64,000 nucleotides of DNA from an uncultured Chitinophagaceae bacterium (GTDB lineage Bacteria > Bacteroidota > Bacteroidia > Chitinophagales > Chitinophagaceae): the NCBI GenBank assembly GCA_937900675.1, contig CALCEA010000113.1, positions 5,455 through 69,454 of the forward strand, given 5' to 3'. Positions 44,815-47,838 of this stretch are shown here, piece by piece. Under the pieces are notes generated by a model. It saw only the letters and a program-made list of their open reading frames with translations, did no database searches and was not told the DNA's origin. The stretch's first letter is position 1. The number at the start of each line of letters is the position of its first letter. A program made the translations under genes and the position numbers.

Positions 44815-45996
44815 ATGAGAATTGTAGAAGTCAATAACCCTAAATTAGATAAAGCTTTTTGTCAAGTCAACGCTGATTTGAACAAATTCAATCCTCATTA
44901 TATTCGACCTTTAGACAATGAAGTATTGCAGGTATTTGATCCTTCTAAAAATAAATTATTCAAAGAGGGTAATGCCAAAAGATGGTTATTGCAATCAGAG
45001 GAAGGAAAGTTCATTGGAAGAATAGCTGCATTCTATTATCCAAAGTATAAAAACAAAGGGACCGACTACCCTACTGGATGTGTGGGATTTTTTGACTGTA
45101 TCAACGATGTAGCTGCTGCAACATTATTATTGGATACTGCCAAAGCATGGTTGATGGAAAATGGCATGGAAGCCATGGATGGTCCAGTTAATTTTGGAGA
45201 CAGAGATAAATGGTGGGGATTAATGATTGATGGATTTGATAGAGAACCTATGTATGGAATGTCTTTTAACCCATCTTATTATCAACACTTATTAGAAGCT
45301 TATGGTTTTAAAAATTACTACAACCAGTATTACTATAAATTAAATGTATTTGATGAATTACCTCCAAGGTTTAAAGAGCGTTATGAAAAATTCAATGCCA
45401 AGCCAGATTATCAAGCAAGACATTTGAATAAAAAGCATTTGGAAAAATATGCACAAGATTTTGTGACTATTTATAATGAAGCATGGGCACAGCATGGCGA
45501 AGCAAAAGCGATTACTTTGGAGCAAATCATGAAATTATTTAAAACCCTTAGCCCTATTATGGATGAAAGGGTTATTTGGTTTGCATACTATAAAGAAGAT
45601 CCCATTGCTATGTTTATTAATATCCCTGATGTCAATCAATATTTTAAATACTTTGATGGTCAGTTAGGATTGAAACAAAAGCTACACTTACTTTGGATGA
45701 AATGGCGCAAACAAAACAAGCGATTAACTGGATTGGCATTTGGGGTGGTTCCAAAATACCAGTCTTTAGGGGTGGACAGTTTCTTGATTTATTCCAGTGC
45801 TTTATTATTGTACAAAATCAAGTCTTATCATCAATATGAGATGGGCTGGGCAGCTGATTGGAATCCGAAGATGGTGAATATTTACAAAAGTTTAGGAGCG
45901 CAACCCAGCAGACAGATGGTTACTTATAGATATATTTTTAATGAAAATCAACACCCATTTGAGCGCCATCCAGAAATGGACTACAGTGCCAAATAA
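44815..45996 (+). CDS. conserved hypothetical protein, possibly GNAT-fold acyltransferase-like
   Basis: 393 aa, soluble. The GPVNFGDRDKWWGLMIDGF and FNPSYYQHLLEAYGF blocks resemble a Bacteroidetes family that I recall being annotated as GNAT-like. Not verified. Confidence 0.4.
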   Translation: MRIVEVNNPKLDKAFCQVNADLNKFNPHYIRPLDNEVLQVFDPSKNKLFKEGNAKRWLLQSEEGKFIGRIAAFYYPKYKNKGTDYPTGCVGFFDCINDVAAATLLLDTAKAWLMENGMEAMDGPVNFGDRDKWWGLMIDGFDREPMYGMSFNPSYYQHLLEAYGFKNYYNQYYYKLNVFDELPPRFKERYEKFNAKPDYQARHLNKKHLEKYAQDFVTIYNEAWAQHGEAKAITLEQIMKLFKTLSPIMDERVIWFAYYKEDPIAMFINIPDVNQYFKYFDGQLGLKQKLHLLWMKWRKQNKRLTGLAFGVVPKYQSLGVDSFLIYSSALLLYKIKSYHQYEMGWAADWNPKMVNIYKSLGAQPSRQMVTYRYIFNENQHPFERHPEMDYSAK

Positions 45997-46017: not shown

Positions 46018-47838
46018 ATGGAAAATTTTGTTGTATCAGCTAGGAAATATAGGCCCCAAAACTTTAATACAGTGGTGGGACAGGCACATATTACCACTAC
46101 CCTAAAAAATGCGATCCTAAACAATCATTTAGCTCATGCTTTTTTGTTTTGCGGTCCAAGAGGAGTAGGTAAAACTACCTGTGCAAGAATTTTAGCTAAG
46201 ACCATTAACTGTACTCAAATCACCAAAGAAGGGGAAGCTTGTAATACCTGTGAAAGCTGTGTGTCTTTTGAAAAAGGCGCTAGCATGAACATTCACGAAT
46301 TAGATGCTGCGAGCAATAACTCCGTAGATGATATTAGAGCACTTGTAGAGCAAGTAAGATTTGCTCCTCAAGCAGGCAAATACAAAGTATATATTGTGGA
46401 TGAGGTTCACATGTTAAGTGCGAGTGCCTTTAATGCATTTTTAAAGACTTTAGAAGAACCTCCTCCTTATGCCATATTTATTTTAGCCACTACAGAAAAA
46501 CATAAGATTCTACCTACTATCTTAAGTAGATGTCAAATATTTGATTTTAAAAGAATCACGAATAATGATACGGTGGTTCACTTAGAAGAAATTGTAGAAA
46601 AAGAACATATTAAAGCAGAAAAGAATGCATTGCAATTAATCGCACAAAAGAGCGAGGGTTGTATGCGTGATGCTTTAAGTATTTTAGATAAGATTGTAAG
46701 TTTTTCTAATGGAGAATTAACTTATGCCAATACCTTAGAACATCTAAATATTTTAGACGAAGCTTATTTCTTTAAATTATTAGATTATCTAACAGCACAG
46801 GATTTAACCAATGCAATGCTCTTATACGATGAAATAAACCAGAAAGGTTTTGAAGGAGACACTGTACTTTATGGATTTGCAGGGTTTATCAGAAATCTTT
46901 TAGTGTGCAAGGATAAGGCAAGTGCGCAATTACTAGAATCTATCGAAGGATGGAGAGATCAGTATTTGAGTACTGCACAAAAAGTGAATACATCTTATTT
47001 GGTAAGCGCCTTAAATATTTTAAATGAATCTGAGATTCAATTTAAAATGGCTAGAAATAAAAGACTCCATGTAGAACTGGCATTAATAAAATTGAATTTC
47101 TTACAACAAGCTTTATCATTAAGTATGGAGGACGGCCAACTAGTAAAAAAAAAACTAGTTGATGTACACTACCCTATTAAGACCAAGAAAATAGTTGCTT
47201 TAAGTAATATAGTTGTTACTAAAGAAGCTACATTAGAAATTGAGTCTACAGTAAATATCCCAGTTAAAAAAGAAGAGCCAAAGACAACAGCAATTGCAAC
47301 TCAAGTTCCTTCAACTGTAACAGAGCCTAGCCCTGCAAAAACTATAAAAACTGTTACTAGCCTTCCGGTAGATCAAAATGGCAATAAGAAAAACTTATTA
47401 GCAGCGCTGCAAGAAAAATACGGAAGTCAATACCAAATTGAAGAAGTAAAAGAATCCAAATCCCTGGATATGGAAACCTTACAGGCTGTTTGGAATGAAT
47501 ATACTGCATACCTGGAAACCACTACCAAACATTCTTCTGCCGGAACTTTCAAATTAGCAGTATTACAAATTGAAGACCCTATTCATTTTACCGTAACTGT
47601 ACCTGCTTTAGTAGCTCAAAAATTTGTAGAGCAGGAAAGAATGAATGTGATGGAAAAAATTTGGGATCGTTTTCAAAATAGAGCCATTCAATTTAGCATA
47701 TTAGTGGCTGCAGGCGAAAAAGAAGATGTACCTTTACATTTAAGATTGAATAGCAAACAAAAATTTGAGCGAATCGCAGAGCAATATCCTTTAGTAAAGG
47801 AATTAAAAGATAGACTTAACTTAGAAGTGTACTTCTAG
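46018..47838 (+). CDS. dnaX: DNA polymerase III subunit tau (gamma/tau)
   Basis: 606 aa. Contains GPRGVGKTT, Zn module CNTCESC, DEVHML and SRC (LSRCQ). Pro/Thr-rich linker, then a C-terminal tau-specific region. Confidence 0.95.
   Translation: MENFVVSARKYRPQNFNTVVGQAHITTTLKNAILNNHLAHAFLFCGPRGVGKTTCARILAKTINCTQITKEGEACNTCESCVSFEKGASMNIHELDAASNNSVDDIRALVEQVRFAPQAGKYKVYIVDEVHMLSASAFNAFLKTLEEPPPYAIFILATTEKHKILPTILSRCQIFDFKRITNNDTVVHLEEIVEKEHIKAEKNALQLIAQKSEGCMRDALSILDKIVSFSNGELTYANTLEHLNILDEAYFFKLLDYLTAQDLTNAMLLYDEINQKGFEGDTVLYGFAGFIRNLLVCKDKASAQLLESIEGWRDQYLSTAQKVNTSYLVSALNILNESEIQFKMARNKRLHVELALIKLNFLQQALSLSMEDGQLVKKKLVDVHYPIKTKKIVALSNIVVTKEATLEIESTVNIPVKKEEPKTTAIATQVPSTVTEPSPAKTIKTVTSLPVDQNGNKKNLLAALQEKYGSQYQIEEVKESKSLDMETLQAVWNEYTAYLETTTKHSSAGTFKLAVLQIEDPIHFTVTVPALVAQKFVEQERMNVMEKIWDRFQNRAIQFSILVAAGEKEDVPLHLRLNSKQKFERIAEQYPLVKELKDRLNLEVYF
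47137..47162 (+). other. candidate recoding or transcriptional-slippage site in dnaX: A10 run inside an 8-nt inverted repeat, with immediate stops in both shifted frames
   Basis: Sequence is CAACTAGT-A9-ACTAGTTG. The -1 frame reads AAA AAA AAA ACT AGT TGA and the +1 frame reads AAA AAA AAC TAG. Confidence 0.5.

Follow-up and report, generated by a model that had tools for sequence, protein, structure and literature searches.

The 64,000-nucleotide (nt) stretch analysed here in full, hereafter the window, derives from an uncultured Chitinophagaceae bacterium (GenBank assembly GCA_937900675.1, contig CALCEA010000113.1, positions 5,455 to 69,454) and contains a dnaX gene. The subject of this study is a run of ten A residues (A10) within that gene, a candidate site of programmed slippage at the boundary between the short (gamma) and long (tau) DnaX products. 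The dnaX product matches the Pfam families DNA_pol3_delta2, DNAX_ATPase_lid and DNA_pol3_gamma3, the last corresponding to domain III at amino acids (aa) 243-364. Its best 120 database matches are all full length (588-606 aa); those that carry names are mostly annotated as "DNA polymerase III subunit gamma/tau", and the closest proteins, where an organism is given, are assigned to Sediminibacterium or Chitinophagaceae. The Escherichia coli gamma/tau structures 1JR3 and 3GLH align to aa 4-357, and by extrapolation from this alignment domain III would end near aa 371.

The sequence from 47137 to 47162 reads CAACTAGT AAAAAAAAAA CTAGTTGA. The A10 run spans codons 376-379, just past the folded clamp-loader core and ahead of the tau-specific part, and both shifted frames terminate shortly after it (Table 1). 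With one extra A, the frame continues as ACT AGT TGA, placing the stop two codons past the run and yielding a predicted product of 381 aa and 42.8 kDa that ends in ...VKKKTS. With one A fewer, the frame continues as AAC TAG, the stop lies one codon past the run, and the predicted product, ending in ...VKKN, has 379 aa and 42.6 kDa. Where the run is out of frame in related sequences, the tau-only part is annotated as a separate gene of 208 aa encoding DUF8439. A preliminary description of the window, made from its sequence, had reported this site; its coordinates, its V376-K379 codons and both of its shifted-frame stops were all reproduced by a sequence check. Its placement of the site after domain III and before the tau-specific domains agrees with the ends of the Pfam match (aa 364) and the structure alignment (aa 357), and its estimate of a gamma-like product of about 380 aa and 42 kDa is matched by the computed sizes. 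The perfect 8-nt inverted repeat that it described around the run was likewise recovered by a repeat search.

Table 1. Features of the dnaX gene and of the A10 site (window coordinates)
Feature	Position	Strand	Remarks
dnaX open reading frame (ORF), zero frame, encoding full-length tau	46018..47838	+	606 aa, 68.4 kDa; from the ORF list
Clamp-loader domains I-III, common to tau and the predicted gamma	46018..47130	+	aa 1 to ~371
Inverted repeat, 5' arm	47137..47144	+	CAACTAGT; perfect 8 nt; probably incidental
A10 slippery run	47145..47154	+	last base of V376 plus K377-K379 (GTA AAA AAA AAA)
Inverted repeat, 3' arm	47154..47161	+	ACTAGTTG; overlaps both out-of-frame stops
Tau-only part: linker and C-terminal domain	47155..47838	+	PF28557/DUF8439 in the precomputed Pfam annotation of matches
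TAG stop, +1 frame	47156..47158	+	reached via one A fewer or two extra
TGA stop, -1 frame	47160..47162	+	reached when the mRNA has an additional A or the ribosome shifts by -1

The A10 run is the longest homopolymer anywhere in the window, as the preliminary description had stated for coding regions, and the runners-up are A8 and T8. Dinucleotide-preserving shuffles contain a mean of 5.3 A10 or T10 runs per window versus the single one observed. Long homopolymer runs are thus depleted, and composition alone does not make A10 unusual, in agreement with the earlier caveat that A runs are common by chance in AT-rich DNA. The significance of the run therefore rests on comparison with relatives and not on the window alone. 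The depletion of long homopolymers fits selection against slippage-prone runs in an AT-rich (35% GC) genome.

A scan of one genome per species identified 80 related dnaX loci (L001-L080) with 55-90% protein identity, of which 79 reach the site. A run of A9 to A11 occupies the homologous position in 71 of these 79 Chitinophagaceae species, across gene GC contents of 0.30-0.53. The conserved feature is a minimum of nine A residues; the reading phase and the length of the run differ among the relatives, which have A9 (phase 0), A10 (phase 0 or phase 2) or A11. A single uninterrupted tau ORF is present in the window and in 78 of the 79 species, the exception being L073 (A9). At the protein level, a KKK motif is found in 74 of the 79 species amid an otherwise variable stretch.

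Such a pattern could arise without any recoding, if KKK were simply a conserved basic motif, AAA the preferred Lys codon of AT-rich genomes and the nearby stops a matter of chance. The conservation of KKK is in keeping with this explanation, as are the 77% share of AAA among Lys codons elsewhere in these genes, the ordinary frequency of A10 expected from composition, and the abundance of out-of-frame stops, whose background median distance is 7-9 codons. The synonymous positions, however, are difficult to reconcile with it. At the site, Lys codons are AAA rather than AAG in a ratio of 214:8 (96%), compared with 2671:816 (77%) elsewhere in the same dnaX genes (Fisher p = 1.4e-15, a nominal value for related species), and all three are AAA in 67 species against 34.6 expected. 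The third Lys is AAG in only five of 74 species; four of these five keep A9 by means of a preceding GTA, and the fifth has A8. Nearby synonymous sites (CAA/CAG, GTA/GTT/GTG, GAT/GAC) vary freely in the same alignment. Furthermore, the run persists in genes with a GC content of 0.50-0.53, and apart from this one, long runs are depleted in the window. The related loci, 496 kb in total, contain 90 runs of at least nine A or T residues, and this site accounts for 71 of them.

The out-of-frame stops provide a second line of evidence. A -1-frame stop lies exactly two sense codons past the run in 64 of the 71 species with the run and within four codons in 70 of them, whereas the background probability of such a stop within two codons is 0.24. 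The TGA arises from NNT GAN across two codons, and where the encoded residues are Val, Leu or Ile followed by Asp or Glu, 58 of 59 species have T as the wobble base, whereas the codon use of each gene would predict 18.3, a bias beyond what protein selection accounts for. Four species (L019, L020, L023 and L029) retain the basic motif and have lost the run, and their wobble base is G or A instead of T; the run and the -1-frame stop are lost together. The +1-frame stop is less constrained, occurring within two codons in 44% of species versus 20% in the background and within 19 codons in all. These sequence comparisons show strong selection, across the family and beyond it, on run length at synonymous sites in the relatives and also on the -1-frame stop. 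The explanation without recoding is strongly disfavoured by the synonymous-site tests, and we regard it as very improbable.

The programmed slippage proposed in the preliminary description is accordingly strengthened by the conservation of the run, of its codons and of the -1-frame stop; AAG and other codons are not freely substituted into the run among the 79 species. Of the flanking features whose conservation it proposed to examine, the -1-frame TGA is conserved and the inverted repeat is not, as described below.

Several related loci depart from the common arrangement. In L076, CCA AAA AAG CAA CTT GAA, containing A_AAA_AAG, stands in place of the long run, and a -1-frame TGA two codons later is kept; in L068, the run is A8 followed by G, also an E. 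coli-like site (L076:1680-1700 and L068, dnaX nt 1128-1150 of each gene). These may be lineages in which a ribosomal shift site has taken over from slippage at a long A run. A second A9 run lies about 100 nt deeper in the tau linker in L029 (nt 1252, codon 418), L060 (nt 1238) and L064 (nt 1234), and further A9 runs occur at nt 1223 and 1508 of the L080 dnaX gene. In L060, a -1-frame stop follows the second run immediately. In L029, the primary run is lost (CAA AAG AAG) and the A9 at codon 418 is followed by a -1-frame stop four codons on, so that it may represent a relocated slippage site.

The inverted repeat raises the question of a hairpin that stimulates or regulates slippage in this lineage. 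An 8-bp stem with a loop of nine A residues has a predicted energy of -9.3 kcal/mol (z = -3.0), matched or beaten by one of 200 shuffles, and its arms are kept or nearly kept in the closest clade, features that speak for such a role. Nevertheless, no pairing exists beyond the close clade, and within it, substitutions in one arm in L001, L003 and L006-L009 break pairs and have no compensatory change. Five inverted repeats of similar size occur within 300 nt, indicating that repeats of such size are common locally. The sequence of the 3' arm is probably explained by its supplying both stops (CTAGTTGA). Leu-Val is specified by identical codons in the two arms, so that the palindrome ACTAGT appears twice. 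Moreover, the 3' arm is transcribed only after the run and hence cannot act on a slipping polymerase. The hairpin was rejected as a functional element on the grounds that it is unconserved and uncompensated and that its 3' arm consists of the stop codons; a role for it seems highly unlikely.

The same two products could also be made during translation, through a -1 ribosomal shift or ribosome sliding on the run. An A_AAA_AAA heptamer lies in frame inside the run in every species that has one, a feature that follows trivially from any in-frame A9, and the strongly conserved stop is the one in the -1 frame. A_AAA_AAG, the most shift-prone form in E. coli (PMC5009743), occurs in L076, where it is the sole heptamer and the TGA is kept, and additionally in L068, L014, L021, L034 and L036. 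The window also carries GGAGG 13 nt upstream of the run, and the energy of upstream anti-Shine-Dalgarno duplexes is below background, both of which would suit a ribosomal mechanism.

Searches for further ribosomal-frameshift features were negative for conserved RNA structure and for an Rfam match and gave a mixed picture for a Shine-Dalgarno element. RNAalifold on 40 species returned no consensus pairs in the 85 nt past the run, where folding energy equals background (z = -1.1 downstream in the window), and none in the 65 nt ahead of it; the 40 nt upstream fold slightly better than background (-6.3 vs -4.6 kcal/mol), with no pairs in common. A Shine-Dalgarno 4-mer core 3-24 nt upstream is not enriched, being present in a fraction of 0.18 of species compared with 0.14 in the background, and the GGAGG of the window is not conserved in relatives. 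The DnaX frameshifting element is represented in Rfam by the model RF00382. An Rfam scan of positions 46900-47400 gave no match to the DnaX element at E <= 10, the presence of the model in the scanned library having been left unchecked, and the sole match in this interval, to DicF, is attributable to chance. No tRNA gene was found in the window.

Beyond the lack of a conserved 3' stem-loop, 5' element or Rfam match, selection maintains at least nine A residues and not the seven of a ribosomal heptamer, compensating through the preceding codon, and the shift-prone AAG is found as the third Lys in just the five species mentioned above. Bacteroidota generally make little use of Shine-Dalgarno pairing, a further point against an upstream stimulator of this kind. 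On balance, a translational origin of the two products, which is the main rival of transcriptional slippage, appears rather unlikely.

We consider it very likely that some programmed frame change produces gamma from this gene, and we favour, as the probable explanation, that the A10 run is a programmed transcriptional-slippage site resembling that of Thermus, which would give gamma and tau from one gene. Transcriptional slippage is preferred for two sets of reasons. The nine-A threshold approximates the length of the RNA:DNA hybrid, whereas a ribosomal heptamer needs seven, and Thermus offers a precedent; in addition, conserved ribosomal stimulators are lacking, at least nine A residues are conserved, and the shift-prone A_AAA_AAG is avoided.

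Mechanistically, RNA polymerase transcribing the T10 template would form an RNA:DNA hybrid composed entirely of rA:dT pairs, which could realign to yield mRNA with A11 and, less often, with other lengths. Transcripts copied faithfully, or changed by a multiple of three, would encode tau of 606 aa and 68.4 kDa. Those with one extra A would be translated to the ...VKKKTS end at the conserved TGA, giving a gamma-like protein of 381 aa and 42.8 kDa that contains clamp-loader domains I-III only, and those with one A fewer or two extra would stop at TAG (...VKKN or ...VKKKN). We infer that the shift occurs and that it is mainly transcriptional; any gamma:tau ratio would be derived in the same way.

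Variants in run length were sought in public assemblies. When the predicted truncated proteins were looked up by exact match, an A9 form was retrieved that belongs to a close variant of the window protein; its cluster also contains forms ending in ...VKKN (A9), ...VKKKTS (A11) and ...VKKKKTS (A14). None of the four truncations that carry the N-terminal sequence of the window itself was present in the protein collection searched. Four contigs, three with A11 and one with A14, come from the Joint Genome Institute (JGI) samples 3300024865, 3300024866 and 3300026570, the last of which contains two different strains, both with A11. The variant contigs L081, L082, L203 and L204 are short. L203 and L204 end 47-66 nt past the run, and the first bases of L081 and L203 fall within the gene preceding dnaX, 60-103 nt ahead of the dnaX start codon. 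The four contigs resemble transcript assemblies interrupted at a homopolymer of heterogeneous length, and their starts hint at transcription initiating inside the 3' end of the gene upstream of dnaX.

Three samples with neighbouring identifiers, 3300024862, 3300024863 and 3300026565, have coordinates that presumably place them at the St. Lawrence and Columbia rivers. These three are listed as rRNA-depleted metatranscriptomes (supplement of 10.1101/2022.02.15.480533). If the three samples with A11 and A14 are metatranscriptomes as well, they would provide direct evidence of heterogeneity at the transcript level; at present they constitute a lead only.

Length variation is also seen among the assemblies of one related species. 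The L073 species (representative contig CAIQQR010000079.1; related proteins P0136, P0143, P0144 and P0145) has contigs of 20-198 kb from metagenome-assembled genomes (MAGs) with A9 (P0136 and P0144, 379-aa product) or A11 (P0143, 381 aa), together with an in-frame A10 protein of 600 aa on six contigs. The presence of this in-frame protein led us to reject L073 (A9) as a species with a fixed two-ORF gene; its A9 is either a real polymorphism in an essential gene or a homopolymer assembly error, possibly a repeated one.

The coexistence of A9, A10 and A11 contigs in this species would be expected if the run acted at the DNA level, with replication slippage toggling the genome among the three lengths and thereby choosing the DnaX form in a manner resembling phase variation. 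Tau is essential, however, so that cells whose genome carries A9 or A11 would continue to depend on slippage in expression to make it. When metagenome contigs were scanned with a pattern permitting any run from A8 to A16, 44 dnaX contigs of the window's clade were recovered, all 44 with A10; the best 120 homologues are full length throughout, and the MAG variants may themselves be assembly errors in a homopolymer. Control at the DNA level is therefore considered very improbable.

A bolder extension of transcriptional slippage is that slippage is frequent enough for A11 transcripts to form the majority, and that genomic run length is nearly neutral among A9, A10 and A11. The leads for it are the A11 and A14 contigs in probable metatranscriptomes, the A9, A10 and A11 MAG contigs of one species, the occurrence of the same module in three distant Bacteroidota, and the two-ORF forms known from the literature in Flavobacterium, Cytophaga and Chlorobi. 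We judge it unlikely and put it forward as speculation. If it were true, lineages and even populations could flip between single-ORF (tau) and two-ORF (gamma) genes by one A, and the A run plus TGA would be an ancestral gamma-making device across Bacteroidota and their relatives.

Several considerations weigh against transcriptional slippage as the explanation of this site. The compared species are related, and p-values are consequently overstated; KKK is conserved as protein too, and part of the signal could be due to peptide selection. A_AAA_AAA is also a valid -1 ribosomal site, ribosomes slide on poly(A), and the sequence data fit both mechanisms. Upstream, the anti-Shine-Dalgarno duplex energy is below that of the background, possibly because Glu/Asp-Gly codons are conserved. 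The samples in which A11 and A14 occur are probable metatranscriptomes, going by the neighbouring identifiers that the supplement lists. Finally, both the two proteins and the heterogeneous mRNA are predictions for this organism.

Debate continues over why a short form, gamma, is retained alongside tau in bacteria (PMC4756838; 10.1101/2022.11.10.516041). Strong selection on this site across the family, and apparently across much of the phylum, provides independent evidence that the two-product arrangement matters. The dnaX site also offers a clean natural system in which slippage by RNA polymerase can be measured in Bacteroidota. For annotation, a second DnaX product of about 380 aa should be expected, and A9 or A11 variants should not be taken as pseudogenes or simple assembly errors.

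Around the site, two further features were recorded. The tau-only peptide directly after the run (window positions 47155-47200, aa 380-395) is conserved in an otherwise variable linker across L001-L080, as LVDxHYPI[RK]xKKI in the close clade and [RQL][VLI][DE]xP[VI]A[FI][RK] in the rest of the family, and it is possibly a tau-specific binding motif. Directly upstream of dnaX, separated by a gap of 21 nt, lies an ORF of 393 aa (44815-45996, + strand) with a conserved 394-aa counterpart in a related contig; the counterpart has no Pfam match. In that contig, the gene order is DnaB, an RsmE-like methyltransferase, the 394-aa ORF and dnaX. Downstream of dnaX, the order SUI1, DUF4783 and phosphoglycerate mutase is common to the related contig and the window.

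The arrangement appears to extend beyond the family. In a set of 150 sequences representing wider relatives, with 41-80% identity across the part that matched, KKK is present in 68 and KK in 39, directly past domain III and often as E-K-K-[K/N/T]. The DNA was checked for three distant Bacteroidota dnaX genes with 41-47% identity, the prediction being a G followed by A9 to A11. In L208, TAG comes after A10. L209 and L210 carry A9, where addition of an A leads to ...EKKNA and then a stop; in L211 (CP054139.1), the run is A10, and one extra A leads to ...LKKKT and then a stop. A stop in the other shifted frame is also found in all three genes.

Among known systems, Caulobacter crescentus likewise makes two DnaX forms from one gene; its gamma arises through partial proteolysis by ClpXP (10.1101/2022.11.10.516041), so that the process is post-translational and involves no slippery run. 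E. coli dnaX is closer, being the same gene with a gamma that ends soon past a Lys-Lys slippery site in the -1 frame. The E. coli site, however, consists of A_AAA_AAG with an upstream Shine-Dalgarno-like sequence and a 3' stem-loop, and it is represented in Rfam as the DnaX element, whereas the window system has no conserved stem-loop, no enrichment of the Shine-Dalgarno core and no Rfam match, avoids AAG and holds the run at nine or more A residues. The positions differ as well: the E. coli slippery site lies about 60 residues beyond domain III, and that of the window directly after it.

Two-ORF dnaX genes with A10 runs have been reported in Flavobacterium johnsoniae, F. psychrophilum and Cytophaga hutchinsonii, and also in Capnocytophaga ochracea, several Chlorobi and Coraliomargarita (Antonov et al. 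2013, PMC3711429, Fig. S3). These genes belong to the same phylum group as that of the window and share with it a run of A9-A10 where gamma and tau diverge, directly followed by a stop (A10-GTTGA in F. johnsoniae). In these two-ORF, or "reversed", genes, gamma is the product of the zero frame and a shift is required for tau, the opposite of the situation in the window. The method of that study sought frameshifts in DNA (PMC3711429), of which single-ORF genes such as the one described here have none, and a full-text literature search found no paper on the single-ORF form in Chitinophagaceae.

In Thermus thermophilus, transcriptional slippage on an A9 run in dnaX has been shown by experiment (Larsen et al. 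2000, via PMC1088944 and PMC5009743). Both genes have a single tau ORF, a run of at least nine A residues in the sense strand past the clamp-loader core, and close stops in both other frames, such that any change in length that is not a multiple of three would truncate the product to gamma. The window differs in its phylum and family (Bacteroidota, Chitinophagaceae), in having A10, in being known from a comparison of about 80 species, and in the position of the site directly after domain III, which would make its gamma minimal at about 380 aa. By analogy, T. thermophilus dnaX is the best match among known systems for the gene described here.

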